From: an uncultured Campylobacterales bacterium
GTDB lineage: Bacteria > Campylobacterota > Campylobacteria > Campylobacterales > CAZCQG01
DNA length: 64,000 nt
NCBI GenBank assembly: GCA_964500775.1
Contig: CAZCQG010000007.1
Span: forward strand, 2,179-66,178
Direction of reading: 5' to 3'
Each line of letters starts with the position of its first letter. Position 1 is the first letter of the stretch. The notes under the pieces are model-generated. The model had not been told where the DNA came from. It searched no databases and saw only the letters and a program-made list of their open reading frames with translations. Position numbers and translations under genes: made by a program. This document shows positions 4,930 to 58,884 of the stretch, piece after piece.

Positions 4930-6255
4930 ATGAATTTATGCGTCGTCGGGACGGGATATGTAGGACTTGTGAGCGGAGCGTGTTTTGCCGAAATGGGAAA
5001 CAAAGTCGTTTGCGTAGATGTCGACGAAAAGAAAATATCAAAACTGAAACAAGGAATCATCCCAATCTATGAACCGGGATTGGAAGATGTCGTTATGAGA
5101 AATTATGAAGATAAACGACTTATTTTTAGTACGAATCTCGAAGAGGGTTTGGAGAAGTGCCAGATAGCTTTTATAGCCGTCGGTACGCCGATGGGAGAGG
5201 ATGGTAGTGCCGATTTGCAATACGTCTTAGCCGTCGCTAGAGAGATCGGTCAGAAGATGACCCGACCGCTTGTGGTGGTAGATAAATCGACCGTCCCCGT
5301 GGGTACGGCGGATAAAGTGCGTGCGGCGATACAAGGGGAGCTAGAGAAACGAGGCGTAACCATCGAGTTTGACGTAGTGAGTAACCCCGAGTTTTTAAAA
5401 GAAGGGGATGCCGTCAATGATTTTTTAAAGCCCGATAGAGTCGTCATCGGTGCGGACAGTCAAAAGTCTATGGAGCTTTTAAAAGAGTTGTATGCCCCGT
5501 TTACTCGAAGTCACGAGCGATTTATCGGGATGGGAATCCGCAGTGCGGAGATGACCAAATACGCTGCAAACGCGATGCTAGCGACGAAAATCTCCTTTAT
5601 GAACGAGATGAGTAATATCTGCGAAGCGGTAGGTGCAAACGTCAACGACGTCCGCGTAGGAATCGGCAGCGACAAACGTATCGGATATAGTTTCATCTAT
5701 CCGGGATGCGGGTATGGCGGGAGCTGCTTTCCAAAAGACGTAAAAGCGCTTGAGAAAATCGCACTAGATGCAGGAGTAGAACCAAAGGTCATAAAAGCGG
5801 TAGAAGATGTCAATAGAGCGCAAAAATATGTGATTAGCAACAAAATAGCGAAGCGATTCGGTGAGGATTTGAGTGGGAAAAAATTCGCGATTTGGGGGCT
5901 TAGTTTTAAACCCGAGACCGATGATATGCGCGAAGCTAGCTCCATTACCATCATAAAAGAACTCGTGCGACGAGGTGCTAGTATCGCGGCATACGATCCA
6001 AAAGCGATGGAAGAGGCGAAACATTTTTACCTCAAAGATGTAGCGGTAGAGTATTTTAATAACAAGTACGATGCACTCAACGGATGCGAGGCGATGATAC
6101 TCGTGACGGAGTGGAAAGAGTTTCGAAGCCCCGATTTTTATGAGATAAAAAATAGACTCAACGCCCCGATAATCTTTGACGGCAGGAATCAGTACAAAAG
6201 AGAGAAGCTCAAAGAGTTGGCGTTTGAGTATTATCAAATAGGGGTAGCGGAGTAG
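4930..6255 (+). CDS. ugd: UDP-glucose 6-dehydrogenase
   Basis: N-terminal Rossmann motif VVGTGYVGLVSG; catalytic GGSCFPKD motif; 441 aa. Confidence 0.93.
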   Translation: MNLCVVGTGYVGLVSGACFAEMGNKVVCVDVDEKKISKLKQGIIPIYEPGLEDVVMRNYEDKRLIFSTNLEEGLEKCQIAFIAVGTPMGEDGSADLQYVLAVAREIGQKMTRPLVVVDKSTVPVGTADKVRAAIQGELEKRGVTIEFDVVSNPEFLKEGDAVNDFLKPDRVVIGADSQKSMELLKELYAPFTRSHERFIGMGIRSAEMTKYAANAMLATKISFMNEMSNICEAVGANVNDVRVGIGSDKRIGYSFIYPGCGYGGSCFPKDVKALEKIALDAGVEPKVIKAVEDVNRAQKYVISNKIAKRFGEDLSGKKFAIWGLSFKPETDDMREASSITIIKELVRRGASIAAYDPKAMEEAKHFYLKDVAVEYFNNKYDALNGCEAMILVTEWKEFRSPDFYEIKNRLNAPIIFDGRNQYKREKLKELAFEYYQIGVAE

Positions 6256-6293
6256 CTCTTTGAATCTCTAATCAAAATAGCAAGAGGTGAGGG

Positions 6294-6521
6294 ATGGCGA
6301 AAATCGATGAAATAAAAGAGGAGTTGAATTATCTCAAGATTTGGCTCGGAATCGTCGTGGTGACGGCTATTAGTCTCATAAGTTGGTTAGTGAATAATTA
6401 TGAGACTTCTAGTTTCGTAAAAATAATCGGAGATGTCGCGGCGGTAGTGATTCTAACGTTTGCTATAATCATAATAGACAGAAAAATTAAGTTAAAAATT
6501 AAAAGTTTAAAGGATTTGTGA
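6294..6521 (+). CDS. small two-TM membrane protein
   Basis: 75-aa ORF with a GAGGTGAGGG Shine-Dalgarno just upstream; two hydrophobic helices. Confidence 0.45.
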   Translation: MAKIDEIKEELNYLKIWLGIVVVTAISLISWLVNNYETSSFVKIIGDVAAVVILTFAIIIIDRKIKLKIKSLKDL

Positions 6522-37512: not shown

Positions 37513-38219
37513 TGGATATTTATCCCGCGATTGATCTAAAAGAAGGGAAAGCCGTCAGGCTGTATAAAGGAGTTATGGAAAGTGCAAAGATATATAGTGA
37601 CGAGCCGTATAAAATTGCACAAGCTTTTGAAAAAATGGGGGCAACGTGGCTGCACTTGGTAGATTTGGACGGCGCGTTTGCAGGCGGTCCGGTCAATTTC
37701 GAGGCGATACGACAAATACGTGAGCATACGAATCTAAAGATCGAACTGGGCGGCGGGATTAGAAGCGAGGAAATCATATTAAAATATAAAGAACTCGGAA
37801 TCGATAGATTTATTTTAGGCTCTATTGCCGCAAAAGCACCCAATTTCGTAAAAGATATGGCACAGAAATATAATATTGCAGTAGGGTTAGACGCAATAAA
37901 CGGCTATGTTGCCACCGAAGGTTGGGCGTCAGAGACGACCATTCCTGCAGAAGAGCTTGCGTTGAAGTTTAAAGAGAGCGGCGTACAAGCGATTATCTGC
38001 ACCGATATAGCCCAAGACGGGACGCTTGAGGGTGTAAATATAGATTTTACGCTCAAGATAAAGCAAGCATCTGCTCTTTATACAATAGCAAGCGGCGGCG
38101 TGAAAGATTTGGAAGACATTTTGCTTGCAAATAAAAACGGAATCGACGGTATTATTATCGGTAAAGCATATTACGAGGGAAAAGTTGACTTATCCGAGGC
38201 TTTTTTGTCAATTCGGTAA
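37509..38219 (+). CDS. hisA: ProFAR isomerase
   Basis: [29 protein letters not shown] motifs. Confidence 0.92.
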
Positions 38220-38305: not shown

Positions 38306-38680
38306 TTGAAATTATTGGTAGTTGATGATAGCTCTACAATGAGAAGGATTATAAAAAATACGCTTCAGAGACTCGGTTATAATGATATATTAGAGGCGGA
38401 GAACGGCGCGCAAGGTTGGGAGATAATGGACGGGAACAAGGATATAAACGTTCTTATTACCGATTGGAATATGCCTGAGATGAACGGTCTAGAGCTAGTG
38501 AAGAAGGTTAGGGCGGAAGAATGCTACAGAGACGTTCCTATTATTATGGTCACGACAGAGGGCGGAAAAGCTGAGGTTATTACTGCTTTGAAAGCAGGGG
38601 TGAATAACTATATCGTCAAACCCTTTACGCCGCAGGTACTGAAAGAAAAACTCGAAGCGGTTCTCGGTGTCAATGACTAA
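38306..38680 (+). CDS. cheY: chemotaxis response regulator CheY
   Basis: Stand-alone receiver, VVDDSSTMRR, ITDWNMPEMNG, KPF; TTG start after AAGGAG. Confidence 0.92.
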   Translation: MKLLVVDDSSTMRRIIKNTLQRLGYNDILEAENGAQGWEIMDGNKDINVLITDWNMPEMNGLELVKKVRAEECYRDVPIIMVTTEGGKAEVITALKAGVNNYIVKPFTPQVLKEKLEAVLGVND

Positions 38681-53943: not shown

Positions 53944-54909
53944 ATGGATAAAGAATTGCAAGAAATAGGTAGATTGAGGTTTTTTCCTATTACGTTATTC
54001 GCCGTGATTATGGGATTTTCTGGGTTGGCTATTTGCTACCAAAAAGCAAGCGAGATATTCGGTATTACGGATATTGTAGGAAATGGGCTTGCTACGATAG
54101 ATTTATTGTTGTTTGCCCTAATATTCGGCACTTATATGCTAAAGTGGATTAAGTACCCTTCTGAAGTAAAAGAAGAGTTTATGCATCCCATTAGGTTAAA
54201 TTTTTTCGCCGCTATATCGATTTCAATGTTGCTGCTAGCAATCGTGTTTCATCCTATTTTTTCTCCTTTAGCGCAAGCGTTGTTTTGGGTCGGTGTCGCA
54301 GTGCATACTTTTTTGACGTTTTACACTATCAGTTTTTGGATCAACCATAACTTCGAGATTACTCACAGTAATCCCGCTTGGTTTATTCCTATTGTCGGAA
54401 ATGTTCTTATCCCTGTTTCGGGGAGCGGTTTTGCCGATCCGGCATTTTTGATGTTTTACTTTTCGCTCGGGATGCTTTTTTGGATTGTTCTATTTACGGT
54501 GATTTTTTATCGTATCATTTTTCACAACCAATTAGCGCAAAAATTTATTCCGACGCTATTTATCCTCATTGCTCCTCCAGCAGTGGGTTTTATCGCATAT
54601 ATAAAAGTAGGCGGGACATTTGATATGTTTGCCCATTTTTTATTGAACATCGCACTCTTTTTTACGTTTCTGCTCTTTTTTATGTTTAAAAACTTCACAA
54701 AACTGAAATTTTTTATCTCTTGGTGGGCTTTCACGTTCCCCTTGGCGGCGATAACTATCGCAAGTATGCTTGCATACCATTTGAGCGGGTTCTTGACCTA
54801 TAAAATCTTTTCGGTATTTTTTCTTGCCGTCACTACCGTCGTAGTATCTATTGTAGCGGTTCGAACGGTAGAGCATATGATCAAAAAAGAGGTTTGTGTA
54901 CAGGAATAA
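53944..54909 (+). CDS. TehA/SLAC1-family (TDT) anion channel/transporter
   Basis: 321 aa, about 10 TM helices; family call from overall pattern (NPAWFIPIVGN segment). Confidence 0.65.
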   Translation: MDKELQEIGRLRFFPITLFAVIMGFSGLAICYQKASEIFGITDIVGNGLATIDLLLFALIFGTYMLKWIKYPSEVKEEFMHPIRLNFFAAISISMLLLAIVFHPIFSPLAQALFWVGVAVHTFLTFYTISFWINHNFEITHSNPAWFIPIVGNVLIPVSGSGFADPAFLMFYFSLGMLFWIVLFTVIFYRIIFHNQLAQKFIPTLFILIAPPAVGFIAYIKVGGTFDMFAHFLLNIALFFTFLLFFMFKNFTKLKFFISWWAFTFPLAAITIASMLAYHLSGFLTYKIFSVFFLAVTTVVVSIVAVRTVEHMIKKEVCVQE

Positions 54910-54933
54910 AAAGTGTTATTCTAGAATCCGATT

Positions 54934-54962
54934 AAAGAATTGGGGTTTTTCCCCGATTCTTT
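54934..54962 (+). terminator. hairpin after the TehA-like gene
   Basis: AAAGAATTGGGG-TTTTT-CCCCGATTCTTT, 12 bp with one G-U pair. Confidence 0.45.
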
Positions 54963-54995: not shown

Positions 54996-56792
54996 GTGTA
55001 TTTTTCAAAAACAACCATTGAATGCGAAAACGTAACCAAGGCAATTAGCGAATTTGCAAAGCAAAATCAGATTAAAACGCACGAAATTGACTATAAGCTA
55101 CTAGAATACAACACCCTCTACAAAAAGAACACGGGAGATCTTACACGGGATTTCAGCACCCTTAGCGAAGAGGAACAAGAGGAGATTGCGCGCACCGAGG
55201 CGCTTATTTGGCAAACCTACAAGATAGAGCTTTATCCCGCAGAAAGAATCCGACACGACATCATCATACTTTCATTCGTAAGCGATAAATACCAAACCTC
55301 TCTTAGTGCTATCGTGAGTAAAAGCTCCAAGATATATCTTTGTGACGAGCTAGAAGAAGAGCTGTATGAGTTTTTTATCAAAAAAAAGCTTTCCATGTCG
55401 GTGATGATAGGGGTTTTTGATCCGCTGTTTCAGATGAGCATCGATGATTTGGCTCAAGAGGTGCGTGAGCACAAAAAACTTACCAAAGATTTTACGATAA
55501 AAATGGCGCACTTTCCCGCTCCCGTGATGCCTAGGGATGATGCGATAATTTTTCGTTACTTGGATTCTAAAAAGTACACCAGAAAAGGGGATAAGCGACT
55601 TTACTACGTAAATCAAGGAAGCATACTCATCGAATACATCGGACCAAAGGAGGGGAAAAACGGTCGCGATTACAGAGGGGAGGGTGTGCACACTCCTTTA
55701 CCTAAGAAAGAACATCTCATTAAGTATAGACTCGGAAGCGGCGTAGAGGAAGTGCCCACCGAAGACGGTTTTACTTATGTTTCAAAAAATGAAGGATATG
55801 TGACTATCGAAGAGGGGAGAATTGATGTCGATAATGAGCTCTCGTTGCAACAAATATCGCAAAAAGAGACGGGCTCGATAGATTTTGGCGTAGATTCCGA
55901 GATGGAGATCGACGTGAGCTTAAGTGATGCCGCCTTGGAGGCAGTCGATAGCAGTATGGTCGTGAAAAGCAATCGTCTCAACGTAGCGGGAAACGTAGCG
56001 CAAGGAGCGCATATAGAGACTCGTTCGGTAAAAATTGACGGGCAAACGCATAAAGATTCTTTTGTGAAGTCGGATGAAGCACTTATTAATATTCATAGAG
56101 GATATTTTGAGGGCAGTACCGTAAAAATAAATAAGCTTGAAGGAGGGTTCGTCAAAGCCGATTATGTAGAGATAAACGACGGGCTTCGAGGAGAAATCAA
56201 GGGGAAAGAGGTGAAAGTGACCAACCTCTTTCCGGGGGTAAAAATATTTGCTTCATCGAGCATCTACGTGCAAAACTTCAAAAATGAAGGGGCAAGCCTC
56301 GTCATTGATTACGATCTCAACGAGATAGAAGGCGAAAATATCGAATCATTGTTAAAGAATATCGAGAATTATGAAAATGACAAAATAAAACTCGCCGAGA
56401 AAATAAAAAGGCTTGATTTTCTCGTAAATAGAGATTTTGCCTTAGTGAAAGGCGAGATAGAAAAATACAAAAAAATTCACGGTTTTATCCCCGAGGGTTT
56501 AAAAAGAAGACTTGCCGCTACTAAAGAAAAAAATATGGAGCTTAATAGCCTCAATAATTCCTACACCGAGGTATCTTCAAAAAGCGCCGATTCTAAGCGA
56601 AAAATCACCGCATTGAAAGACGGAATAGAGCAGTGCAACGTCGCATCTAACGGAAATTGGGGGAAGCTTACTTTTGTCTCTTTTGTTTCAAAAGCGTTTG
56701 GTTTTACATTGCGAATCAAAGCGAGGCAGGGTGATTTGAAATATGCGCTGGCAAAAGACGGTGCGGGTTATAAGATAATTCGAGCCGAGTAA
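54996..56792 (+). CDS. FapA/DUF342-like protein (flagellar assembly protein A family)
   Basis: 598 aa. The central region has a repetitive beta-helix-like pattern (NVAGNVAQGAHIETRSVKIDG...VKINKLEGGFVKADYVEIND...), followed by a coiled coil. Family call made by eye only. Confidence 0.5.
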   Translation: MYFSKTTIECENVTKAISEFAKQNQIKTHEIDYKLLEYNTLYKKNTGDLTRDFSTLSEEEQEEIARTEALIWQTYKIELYPAERIRHDIIILSFVSDKYQTSLSAIVSKSSKIYLCDELEEELYEFFIKKKLSMSVMIGVFDPLFQMSIDDLAQEVREHKKLTKDFTIKMAHFPAPVMPRDDAIIFRYLDSKKYTRKGDKRLYYVNQGSILIEYIGPKEGKNGRDYRGEGVHTPLPKKEHLIKYRLGSGVEEVPTEDGFTYVSKNEGYVTIEEGRIDVDNELSLQQISQKETGSIDFGVDSEMEIDVSLSDAALEAVDSSMVVKSNRLNVAGNVAQGAHIETRSVKIDGQTHKDSFVKSDEALINIHRGYFEGSTVKINKLEGGFVKADYVEINDGLRGEIKGKEVKVTNLFPGVKIFASSSIYVQNFKNEGASLVIDYDLNEIEGENIESLLKNIENYENDKIKLAEKIKRLDFLVNRDFALVKGEIEKYKKIHGFIPEGLKRRLAATKEKNMELNSLNNSYTEVSSKSADSKRKITALKDGIEQCNVASNGNWGKLTFVSFVSKAFGFTLRIKARQGDLKYALAKDGAGYKIIRAE

Positions 56793-56850: not shown

Positions 56851-56866
56851 GGTACTATTTTTGCTT
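56851..56866 (+). promoter_or_regulatory. sigma54 (RpoN)-like -24/-12 promoter
   Basis: GGTACTATTTTTGCTT: GG and GC separated by 10 nt as in TGGCAC-N5-TTGCW; -12 element reads TTGCTT; 26 nt from the GC to the ATG at 56890. Confidence 0.5.
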
Positions 56867-56889
56867 CTCCTCCGTTTCGGAGGTGTAAA

Positions 56890-57885
56890 ATGAAAATAGC
56901 GTCTCATAGTTTTACGACGTATGCCGAGCATACACTTTTGGAATCTTCAACCACGAGTTTTTCCCTCGGAAAGTTCTCTTTCGGTAATATGATCGAAACG
57001 GAACAGAGTGGATTTGACGACATAAAAACAATCGGTGAGAAACTCAAAATCTCATTAGTTTTTGAGCTTTTACAGGCTCTCGGTAGGGAGGGCGGAGAAG
57101 AGATAAAGAACTATTACGGCGAGCATGAGGATTTGCTACGCAACGCACAAAAATTGAAGAGCGGTGTGCCAACGGAAGCCCCCGTCTCGTTACTGTCGAG
57201 TTTTTTTGAATCGGTGCAGAAGTTTAGCGAAAAAATAGAGACCAAGATACAAGGCAAAGTGTATACGGAAGATGGACGCGAGATTGTCATCAATGCCGAT
57301 TTGCGGCTTTCACAATCTTTTTACGCGAAAATTGAAAAAAGCGCAGCGTTTATAGACCCGCTTGTCATCACGTTTGACGGAAAACTCCCTGAGCTTGACG
57401 GTACGAAATTTTCGTTCGATATAGATTGCGACGGTGAAAAAGACCAAATAAGCAGGCTGGTCAAAGGGAGCGGCTTTTTAGCGCTCGATAGAGACGGCAA
57501 CGGAAAAATCGACGACGGTTCGGAGCTTTTCGGGACAAAAAGCGGCGATGGATTTGAGGAATTACGCACGTTTGATGAAGACGGGAATGAGTGGATAGAT
57601 TCCGGAGATTCGGTATTTGATAGATTGCGAATCTGGTCAAACGACGAGGGTGAGAGTAGACTGATCGCTCTTGGAGAAGCGGGTATCGGCGCGATATATC
57701 TCGGCGGCGTGAATGCGGAGTTTGGATATAGAAGCAGCAACGGAGCCGCACTGGGGCAACTTCGTAAAAGCGGTGTTTTTTTATATGAGGACGGCAGGAT
57801 AGGCAATGTCTCTCAAGTAGATTTTGCAAAAGAGGGCGAATCTAGCGAGGGATTTGGATTAAAGAGTATGTTGGAGCAGATATAA
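56890..57885 (+). CDS. DxDxDG calcium-binding repeat protein, paralog A
   Basis: 331 aa; FDIDCDGEKD, LDRDGNGKIDDGSELFG, FDEDGNEWIDSGD loops; no Sec signal peptide apparent; GGAGG Shine-Dalgarno. Confidence 0.7.
   Translation: MKIASHSFTTYAEHTLLESSTTSFSLGKFSFGNMIETEQSGFDDIKTIGEKLKISLVFELLQALGREGGEEIKNYYGEHEDLLRNAQKLKSGVPTEAPVSLLSSFFESVQKFSEKIETKIQGKVYTEDGREIVINADLRLSQSFYAKIEKSAAFIDPLVITFDGKLPELDGTKFSFDIDCDGEKDQISRLVKGSGFLALDRDGNGKIDDGSELFGTKSGDGFEELRTFDEDGNEWIDSGDSVFDRLRIWSNDEGESRLIALGEAGIGAIYLGGVNAEFGYRSSNGAALGQLRKSGVFLYEDGRIGNVSQVDFAKEGESSEGFGLKSMLEQI
57475..57545 (+). repeat. 71-bp perfect inverted repeat, arm 1 (inside paralog A)
   Basis: Hand alignment: exact reverse complement of 58200-58270. 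Confidence 0.9.
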
Positions 57886-57892
57886 AACGGTA

Positions 57893-57912
57893 CGGCGGGA
57901 GCTACCCCGCCG
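57893..57912. terminator. bidirectional GC hairpin between the convergent paralogs
   Basis: CGGCGGG-AGCTAC-CCCGCCG, 7-bp stem; overlaps the last codons of paralog B. Confidence 0.55.
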
Positions 57913-58789
57913 CCATATCTATGTGGTAGATTCCCCCGCTAAATCTATCATCGGTAAAATCTATCGCCGCACTTTTTTGTAGCATCCCCGCTAAATTTCC
58001 TTTGCCGTCATACAGCGCTTCTTGCGTTTTAAAAGCATTGAGGTAAATCACCCCCACACCCGCTTCGCCTAGCCCGATAAGCGAATCTTCCCCGTTGTCG
58101 TTCTTTTTCCAGATTCGTAATTTATCGTAAATGAAGTCTTCGGTATCTATTTTGCCGTCCTTGTTTGTGTCGTACATTGAGAGGTCTAAAAAGCCATCCC
58201 CGCTTTTTGTCCCGAAAAGCTCCGAACCGTCGTCGATTTTTCCGTTGCCGTCTCTATCGAGCGCTAAAAAACCGCTTCCGCGTTTCAAAAGCGAGATCTG
58301 ATCGCTACGTCCGTCGCTATCGAGGTCGAATGTAAATTTTTGATCGGATAATTCCGCACCTTTTCCATCGAAATTCACCACGAGGGGGTCAATGAGTTTC
58401 GTCTTCTCTAGTTCTTTGTCTTCATAGATTCCTATCTTTCGTAAGAGCGATTCGCTGATATTTATGAGAATCTCGCTATTAAAATTCCCATCGGTCGCGG
58501 TAATCTCTAGGTCGATGACGGTTTGTCTGATATTTTCGACGTATACCGTCTTGCTATCCCCTTTATCGAGAGCTTCGAGCAGAATGTCGGAGGATTCTTT
58601 TTTGATTGCCTTTAGTCTTTGAAGCGTCTTGTCGAGAAGGCTTTTTTCAAAAGTGTCACGTGATTCTTTGAGGCTGTTCGACGTGCTTGTTTGCGGTGCC
58701 TCTACCGCTTGTGTATTCGCTACCGAGGCGTTTTTTGTTACGACCTCTAAACTTATGCTGACTTCCGAAAAACGTGCAGAAATATCCAT
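57902..58789 (-). CDS. DxDxDG calcium-binding repeat protein, paralog B
   Basis: 295 aa; FDLDSDGRSD, LDRDGNGKIDDGSELFG, YDTNKDGKIDTED loops; no Sec signal peptide apparent. Confidence 0.7.
   Translation of the reverse strand: MDISARFSEVSISLEVVTKNASVANTQAVEAPQTSTSNSLKESRDTFEKSLLDKTLQRLKAIKKESSDILLEALDKGDSKTVYVENIRQTVIDLEITATDGNFNSEILINISESLLRKIGIYEDKELEKTKLIDPLVVNFDGKGAELSDQKFTFDLDSDGRSDQISLLKRGSGFLALDRDGNGKIDDGSELFGTKSGDGFLDLSMYDTNKDGKIDTEDFIYDKLRIWKKNDNGEDSLIGLGEAGVGVIYLNAFKTQEALYDGKGNLAGMLQKSAAIDFTDDRFSGGIYHIDMAAG
58200..58270 (-). repeat. 71-bp perfect inverted repeat, arm 2 (inside paralog B)
   Basis: Exact reverse complement of 57475-57545. Confidence 0.9.
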
Positions 58790-58856
58790 AACAAATCCTT
58801 TTGTTGAGGTTCGACATCCTTGTCGTTATCGTGTGATGTAAATTGTGAGTGAGGAT

Positions 58857-58884
58857 ATATCGGGTAAAACGGAAAAAAAATTTA
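58857..58884 (-). promoter_or_regulatory. sigma28 (FliA)-like promoter
   Basis: Minus strand reads TAAA-N17-CCGATAT (consensus TAAA-N15/16-GCCGATAA); the -10 element lies about 68 nt upstream of the paralog B ATG. Confidence 0.45.

Follow-up and report, generated by a model that had tools for sequence, protein, structure and literature searches.

Convergent paralogs joining DUF8379 to a self-processing module, and their putative flagellar promoters, in an uncultured Campylobacterales bacterium

In Campylobacter and Helicobacter the paralogous flagellins flaA and flaB are split between two flagellar sigma factors, sigma28 and sigma54. Other C. jejuni proteins without a structural role (FlaC, FspA, CiaI and FedA-D) are co-expressed with the flagellum or secreted through it, and to our knowledge none of them carries a self-processing module (SPM) or an Asp-Pro autocleavage site. 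What is known of the natural biology of the SPM comes from two or three giant RTX toxins alone, and the chemistry of the module, a calcium-triggered aspartic anhydride, is already used as the NeissLock ligation tool. The SPM of FrpC has no folded structure in the absence of calcium. Calcium at extracellular levels makes it fold, which twists the Asp414-Pro415 bond until this is broken and leaves on the upstream fragment an aspartic anhydride that can react with lysine, a process called 'clip-and-link' (PMC7078468). The module has been regarded as exclusive to very large RTX proteins (>1,000 residues) secreted by type I systems (PMC7078468). Here, we analyse a stretch of 64,000 nucleotides, hereafter the window, from an uncultured Campylobacterales bacterium (assembly GCA_964500775.1, contig CAZCQG010000007.1), in which two convergent genes, paralog A and paralog B, encode small proteins with an SPM at the C-terminal side of a DUF8379 domain. 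A is preceded by a sigma54-type promoter motif and B by a sigma28-type one. The sequence evidence gathered from the window and from relatives gives good support to the view that both belong to the flagellar regulon, A as a middle-class and B as a late-class protein.

Paralog A (56890-57885, plus strand) encodes 331 residues and paralog B (57902-58789, minus strand) 295 residues; an alignment of 248 residues at 45% identity (E 4e-55) bears out their original prediction as paralogs. That prediction had left them as uncharacterised calcium-binding proteins and had proposed searches with hidden Markov models (HMM) and structures. These searches identified an FrpC-type SPM, and the two can now be named DUF8379-SPM proteins with an invariant Asp-Pro site. 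Against the local Pfam and NCBIfam collections, neither protein gave anything beyond weak EF-hand matches, and these for B only. The names PF26745 (SPM) and PF28292 (DUF8379) are taken from precomputed Pfam assignments on A, its homologs and neighbouring genes, in which both families are found on A and its homologs. A phmmer search of the PDB with B retrieved the FrpC SPM (6sjw/6sjx, E 3.5e-6) in an alignment that begins at Pro135 of the Asp-Pro pair, and a profile built from 100 homologs matched the same module with an E-value of 2.2e-13. The AlphaFold (AF2) model of A has a mean pLDDT of 76, with values of 88-97 over residues 157-315. Comparison of this predicted, not solved, structure with the FrpC SPM precursor 6sjx by Foldseek gave an E-value of 5.4e-9, a probability of 1.00 and a TM(target) of 0.70 over 178 columns at 29% identity; the search of the PDB with the A model returned no other significant match. 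By sequence and by predicted fold, the C-terminal domain of A and B is an SPM homolog.

The two proteins share the same layout. In A, the DUF8379 domain (PF28292; residues 1-156, 56890-57357, plus strand) ends at the scissile Asp156 (codon 57355-57), and the SPM, delimited by the profile, Foldseek and PF26745, runs from Pro157 (57358-60) to the end of the gene (57358-57885). Within it, alignment to the FrpC SPM places EF-hand-like loops at D200-E212 (57487-57525) and D229-D240 (57574-57609), and D311 (57820-22) occupies an invariant column among homologs. In B, on the minus strand, a divergent and shorter DUF8379-like domain (residues 1-134, 58388-58789) ends at Asp134 (58390-88), and the SPM, located by phmmer against 6sjw, extends from Pro135 (58387-85) to the stop codon (57904-02), i.e. 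over 57902-58387. The Asp-Pro pair, D156-P157 in A and D134-P135 in B, thus lies at the N-terminal boundary of the module.

The promoter motifs that the original prediction had assigned to the two genes were both found at their expected positions. Upstream of A, GGTACTATTTTTGCTT (56851-56866, plus strand) presents the -24 GG (56851-52) and the -12 GC (56863-64), separated by 10 nt. From the GC to the ATG (56890) the distance is 25-26 nt, in keeping with the 26 nt first given. From this motif, a start site is predicted near 56876, which would leave a leader of ~14 nt with its Shine-Dalgarno sequence, GGAGGTG, at 56879-85. To set this site in context we used relatives: 80 loci were examined of the 501 found in a species-representative genome set, and 160 nt upstream of start codons were scored. 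In Campylobacterota, the pattern GG[ACT]A-N7-TGCT (consensus GGAAT-N4-TTTGCT) precedes 24 of 50 family genes and 7 of 418 other genes of the same loci (p 2e-20), with the proviso that many of the ortholog sites come from related Sulfurimonas genomes and that such counts are not fully independent. The distance between the sigma54-type sites of the orthologs and the ATG varies from 38 to 152 nt, and apart from these sites the upstream regions are unlike one another. Orthologs from Sulfurospirillum and Sulfuricurvum have a like element and spacing, those of Sulfurospirillum at the same 39-40 nt from the ATG as in the window. In Sulfurospirillum (L001-L006) the element reads AGAAT-N4-TTTGCTT against GGTACT-N4-TTTGCTT in the window; AG replaces the normally invariant GG at -24 and is kept in six species.

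Scoring with a position weight matrix (PWM), proposed along with the original prediction, gave a divided answer for the A site. A matrix built from 23 ortholog sites, the window excluded, ranks it (56847-69) first of 128,000 positions with 21.2 bits, the runner-up having 16.2, these sites having been chosen by a pattern that the window site also fits. A matrix independent of the orthologs, built from eight mapped RpoN promoters of C. jejuni (Table S6 of PMC3656092), ranks it second of 128,000 with 11.6 bits, within the range of shuffled sequence (mean of shuffle maxima 13.3), and on this model alone the site is insignificant. Hence, it is ortholog conservation and context, rather than likeness to the C. 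jejuni consensus, that argue for the candidate promoter of A. A 6-bp hairpin (CCTCCG-TTT-CGGAGG, 56869-56883, plus strand, -8.8 kcal/mol) covers the Shine-Dalgarno sequence of A. It was set aside as a regulator, because its 5' arm falls before the sigma54 start site predicted for A and because it is unconserved in orthologs. Four orthologs (L027, L041, L061 and L077) have in common an ~80-nt leader element (CACGGGTGAAAAATCCCTAAATTTAGGCTAATCGGAGATAGGAGC...) between the sigma54 site and the ATG, which may be a conserved regulatory RNA structure.

The sigma28-type promoter of B (58857-58884, minus strand), recognised by its motif and by ortholog conservation, consists of TAAA (58884-81), a spacer of 17 nt and CCGATAT (58863-57), and predicts a start site near 58849. 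The spacer had been remarked upon as one nucleotide longer than the FliA consensus; its length is confirmed and is not unusual, since ortholog sites with N17 (8) are as well represented as those with N16 (7). The window as a whole contains 8 matches to TAAA-N15-17-CCGATW against 2.06 expected. Among Campylobacterota, TAAA-N14-18-CGATW precedes 10 of 50 family genes and 10 of 418 other genes of the same loci (p 7e-6). The signal recurs in Firmicutes, where the CGATAW -10 element, of sigmaD type, is found upstream of 17/20 family genes and 20/133 others (p 7.5e-10), and the full TAAA-N-CGATW motif upstream of 8/20 and 4/133, respectively (p 7.4e-6). The -10 consensus of C. jejuni sigma28 is CGAT(AT/TT/TA) (PMC3656092, Table S6), and the CCGATT variant agrees with the CGATTT consensus reported for this sigma factor. 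No sigma70-like site was found on the right strand upstream of either A or B.

Downstream of its promoter motif, the leader of B folds into two hairpins on the minus strand. SL1 (CGACA-AGGA-UGUCG, 58825-58812) and SL2 (AACAAA-AGGA-UUUGUU, 58805-58790) both have AGGA in the loop, and SL2 holds the Shine-Dalgarno region and stands immediately before the AUG; their GGA motifs start 21 nt apart. The folding energy of the leader is unexceptional (z -0.8). Among orthologs, the 100 nt next to the start codon contain CAAGGA in 10/20 sigma28-type genes (16/422 controls) and in 9/20 Firmicutes genes (3/137 controls). Hairpins of 5 bp or more that display the Shine-Dalgarno GGA precede 11/22 sigma28-type genes (24/436 controls) and 12/20 Firmicutes genes (17/145 controls); their stem sequences differ and pairing is retained. 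In C. jejuni, experiments showed the same two-hairpin architecture in the leader of flaA, which is the chief target of FliW-controlled CsrA (PMC4894983). By analogy, SL1 and SL2 are putative CsrA sites.

The family extends far beyond the window. The species-representative set contains no close relative, the best match being 45% identical. Members come from three phyla or more: we found them in Campylobacterota (Sulfurimonas, Sulfurospirillum, Sulfuricurvum and some Campylobacter), in Firmicutes (Clostridia, Oscillospiraceae, Syntrophomonas, Desulfosporosinus and Pseudobacteroides) and in Gammaproteobacteria. The proteins have 295-390 residues. In a neighbour-joining tree of the SPM domain, the short proteins with sigma54-type promoters (307-349 residues) form clades apart from the clade of long proteins with sigma28-type promoters (373-389 residues). 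Six metagenome-assembled genomes (MAGs) encode one copy with each promoter type (L017/L009, L052/L022, L023/L037, L053/L030, L061/L035 and L029/L019). The sigma54/sigma28 split of the window thus recurs in other genomes, but in those six MAGs the two copies are not adjacent. Fourteen loci of the sigma54 type have as immediate divergent neighbour a gene for a protein of ~537 residues of the FliK hook-length-control family (PF02120), beyond which lies a small gene resembling the C-terminus of FlhB, and in the set from Firmicutes and Gammaproteobacteria the neighbours include FlaG (4 loci) and FliS (2 loci). Clades, MAGs and fliK neighbours, together with the sigmaD-type promoters of Firmicutes and the presence of flaG and fliS, uphold what was first proposed from the window, namely that the paralogs are split between sigma54 and sigma28 and that both belong to the flagellar regulon.

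The relatives yielded some further observations. In the divergent regions of six loci (L010, L018, L025, L028, L042 and L048), TTATCGAGTAAAAA is conserved beside the called start codon of fliK; read on the fliK strand it gives ...TACTCGATAA, which resembles a sigma28 -10 element, and no sigma54 site facing fliK was found in these six regions. Orthologs of the long clade (e.g. L009, L016, L034, L035, L037, L046, L068 and L072) have a C-terminal extension of 60-70 residues, probably helical, in which the family HMM gives a second match at the helix of the N-domain (HMM positions ~13-109); this extension is missing from A and B. In L049 (Campylobacterota MAG092), the DUF8379-SPM unit makes up the C-terminal third of a 983-residue open reading frame (ORF), and the unit can therefore be fused to other sequence. 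At L014 (Campylobacter sp. M4, 5216-6350), two short ORFs just 5' of a full-length gene match the family HMM with 57 and 48 bits and may be remnants of a tandem duplicate.

How might such proteins work? From these data and from the biochemistry of FrpC we infer for A and B dependence on the two sigma factors in vivo, CsrA binding, export, cleavage and a target. A would be transcribed from a sigma54 promoter at the hook stage, and B from a sigma28 promoter at the filament stage with a flagellin-like leader. In the low-calcium cytoplasm the SPM would be unfolded, keeping the protein competent for export, and the flagellar type III apparatus would carry it out of the cell. Once external calcium had folded the SPM, the Asp-Pro bond would be strained and broken, releasing the DUF8379 fragment with a C-terminal aspartic anhydride. 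This anhydride could be hydrolysed, in which case the fragment is set free, or attacked by a nearby lysine, in which case the fragment becomes covalently joined to a partner. We consider this full reading, of flagellar-regulon DUF8379-SPM proteins exported by the flagellar apparatus and cut at Asp-Pro by external calcium, to be the probable one, if by no means a secure one.

The export route deserves particular attention. Neither A nor B has a Sec signal, as had been noted originally; the maximal mean Kyte-Doolittle hydropathy of 12 residues within the first 50 is 0.73 in A and 1.13 in B, and none of the 82 family members retrieved from the loci has a hydrophobic N-terminus. The GGxGxD RTX repeat is absent from A and B, and none of the 82 members contains a tandem repeat. 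B ends 4 residues past the last conserved SPM strand, and the members from Firmicutes likewise end within a few residues of the SPM. With no RTX repeats, no more than a third of the size of the very large RTX proteins, and a tail of only 4 residues in B, the two proteins fall outside the class of SPM-bearing RTX exoproteins (FrpC/ApxIVA). Type I secretion was rejected as a general route, given that the family lacks RTX repeats and a conserved C-terminal tail and occurs in Firmicutes. Flagellar type III export, which had been raised originally as a possibility, would be the simplest route because the proteins lack a Sec signal, RTX repeats and a conserved type I signal at the C-terminus, because the SPM is disordered at cytoplasmic calcium, and because the same architecture is found in monoderms and diderms, some of whose leaders are flagellin-like.

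Several points weigh against this reading. The rpoN, fliA, csrA, fliW and flgR genes of the source genome are outside the 64-kb window. Gammaproteobacterial members and the Pseudobacteroides-type loci L039 and L043 show no clear flagellar promoter. Sulfurimonas and similar genera have larger genomes than C. jejuni and may use sigma54 for non-flagellar genes. To these one must add the partial dependence among ortholog sites and the low score of the A site with the C. jejuni matrix, and, for cleavage, the loss of several FrpC features discussed below. Finally, the N-terminus of A is predicted as a confident beta strand, unlike the disordered signal typical of flagellar export substrates, and at many other loci the gene context differs and frequently has no link to flagella.

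The last two points also favour the best of the alternatives. The proteins may be co-regulated with flagella, but use another export route or act inside the cell to regulate motility, either in response to calcium or in the manner of a checkpoint; cleavage would then only free or inactivate the DUF8379 part. Indeed, promoter evidence concerns transcription only, most loci have non-flagellar neighbours, and genes for ABC transporters lie near a few of them. Yet, a different route finds no signal peptide, RTX repeat or conserved C-terminal extension to rely on in this family, and would have to serve the same architecture in monoderm Firmicutes. A role inside the cell is at odds with the folding of the SPM, which needs calcium far above cytoplasmic levels (PMC7078468), and the flagellin-like, CsrA-type leader fits a late export substrate. 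We therefore hold this alternative to be unlikely, while giving it a real share of the probability.

For the N-terminal domain, the model of A shows three beta strands of 25-28 residues (pLDDT 93-97) and two poorly predicted helices. The N-terminus is conserved throughout the family as MKIxxSxIxM (MKIxxxxIxM in the alignment that contains A and B). A search with a profile of the domain returned only DUF8379+SPM proteins and linked it to no named flagellar family. A fold search gave matches to pore-state MACPF, gasdermin and CDC structures, with TM of 0.1-0.3 and root-mean-square deviations >30 A; these were rejected as reflecting long hairpins and not homology. Going by the model, the DUF8379 fragment would consist of three strands of ~27 residues and so recall the hairpins from which giant beta-barrels are assembled.

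A second alternative accepts the SPM-like fold and denies its activity: the domain would only bind calcium, as a structural element, and Asp-Pro would be a structural relic. The FrpC module has four calcium sites (D419/421/423; D462-E474; D499-D511; D521-E532), a stacking of W451 on W519 and a D478/D579 pair near the cleavage site (PMC7078468). In our family, sites II (DRDGNGKIDDGSE) and III (DEDGNEWIDSGD / DTNKDGKIDTED) are canonical EF-hand-like loops and the equivalent of W519 (W249) is nearly invariant, whereas site I keeps only the equivalents of D421 and of a G (D419 and D423 are lost), site IV is degenerate, and W451 and D478 are replaced. Because several features of the FrpC SPM are unconserved, we regard self-cleavage competence of A and B as likely, judging from sequence, and no more than that. 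Nevertheless, Asp-Pro stands in the same alignment column in 82/82 family members and in all 100 database homologs, across three phyla, in surroundings that are only ~20-30% conserved. D311 is invariant as well and sits where D579 of FrpC is expected, the HMM alignment ending before that position. The FrpC mutants D478N and D579N still cleave, showing that these positions tolerate change, and every diverse SPM homolog tested by others was cleaved (PMC12538545). Loss of processing thus seems improbable.

Chance matches in A+T-rich intergenic DNA, where short motifs are common, with A and B as ordinary sigma70-dependent genes, would agree with the C. jejuni score of the A site but are very hard to reconcile with the enrichment among orthologs (p 2e-20 and p 7.5e-10), with motifs at variable distances in otherwise unalignable upstream regions, with a promoter type that tracks the clade, with fliK as divergent neighbour in 14 loci and with the want of a sigma70-like site on the right strand.

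The surroundings of the two genes add some detail. Between the convergent stop codons, and overlapping the 3' end of B, a G+C-rich hairpin of 9 bp (57892-57913) has a T-run on the minus strand and is likely a terminator. On the other side of B, 105 nt separate the stop codon of rarA (58895) from the ATG of B (58789), and this gap holds the sigma28-type motif. Upstream of A, the gene at 54996-56792 (plus strand) encodes a DUF342-like protein of 598 residues with a FapA_N domain. The original description of this gene as FapA/DUF342-like holds in part: PF20250 (FapA_N) matches residues 202-273 (72 residues), at 27.1 bits just above its cut-off of 27 bits, and the FapA core family gave no match to the product. 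Its homologs, of ~635 residues, have PF20250 as their sole family. Two overlapping sigma28-like pattern matches, TAAA-N17-CCGATT (54907-33) and TAAA-N16-CCGATT (54933-58), together 54907-54958 on the plus strand, lie 38-60 nt 5' of the start of this gene, and suggest that it too is a late flagellar gene. FapA families are absent from the 25 commonest neighbour families in each of three neighbour sets; the adjacency of FapA to SPM genes is specific to the window and unconserved elsewhere. A search of the whole window against Rfam matched no known RNA family.

Two side observations concern the annotation of B and a second sigma54-type site. A collection of 15 billion proteins contains A and the FapA_N protein, both from one NCBI contig, but no exact match to the product of B as read from the single upstream start codon available to it; B may have been annotated with another start or never called. 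The best match of the window to the C. jejuni RpoN matrix is TGGAAGACATTTTGCTT (38110-38126, plus strand), which at 20.9 bits exceeds the maximum of 50 shuffles (18.5). It lies within the 3' end of a hisA/hisF-like gene, ~180 nt 5' of a gene (38306-38680) whose product is a response regulator of the CheY type and after which come prmA and ftsH. The site may be a sigma54 promoter for cheY.

What is new in these results must be stated with care. The pair DUF8379 + SPM is already catalogued in Pfam. A search of the literature available to us found no paper linking the SPM with flagella and none mentioning DUF8379. The novelty lies in the setting of this self-processing chemistry, itself known: the protein architecture and the regulatory programme are new, and the export route probably is too. 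If this is confirmed, flagellar regulons would gain a conserved component or cargo that has so far had no name. The SPM would be seen in another biological context, with a further export route suggested for it, and protein engineering would obtain short natural SPM variants. One might go further and propose that DUF8379-SPM proteins form a conserved class of substrates of the flagellar type III exporter that has escaped notice, and that calcium arms them only after they have left the cell. We find this broad generalisation doubtful. Were it true, it would bring the first covalent 'clip-and-link' chemistry to flagellar biology and the first natural role of the SPM outside RTX toxins.

Comparison with described systems shows where A and B stand. 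FapA, with its DUF342 domain, is flagellar assembly protein A of Vibrio. The FapA_N gene of the window resembles it in its FapA_N match, in a size typical of DUF342 proteins and in the sigma28-like motifs upstream, and departs from it in matching the N-terminal family only, and at threshold. The closest relative of the modules themselves is the FrpC SPM, by sequence (E 2.2e-13), by predicted fold (TM 0.70), by the Asp-Pro pair at the N-terminal edge, by loops II and III, by the Trp equivalent to W519 and by the invariant Asp where D579 is expected. In contrast with FrpC, the proteins of our family have 295-390 residues and no RTX repeats, carry the SPM at the C-terminus after DUF8379, are associated with promoters of flagellar sigma factors and occur also in Firmicutes, and their calcium sites I and IV, W451 and D478 are unconserved.

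With flaA and flaB, A and B share the division of paralogs between two flagellar sigma factors, repeated in six genomes besides the window, and B shares with flaA a leader with two ANGGA-loop hairpins, the second over the ribosome-binding site (PMC4894983). Unlike these flagellins, to which they have no relation in sequence or fold, A and B belong with proteins outside the known flagellar structure. In this respect they resemble FlaC, FspA, CiaI, FedA-D and the products of Cj0391c and Cj0977, two sigma28 genes of C. jejuni (PMC3656092, Table S6), all of them small, devoid of a signal peptide and preceded by sigma28 or sigma54 promoters. Unlike that group, the DUF8379-SPM family reaches well beyond Campylobacter, into Firmicutes and Gammaproteobacteria.

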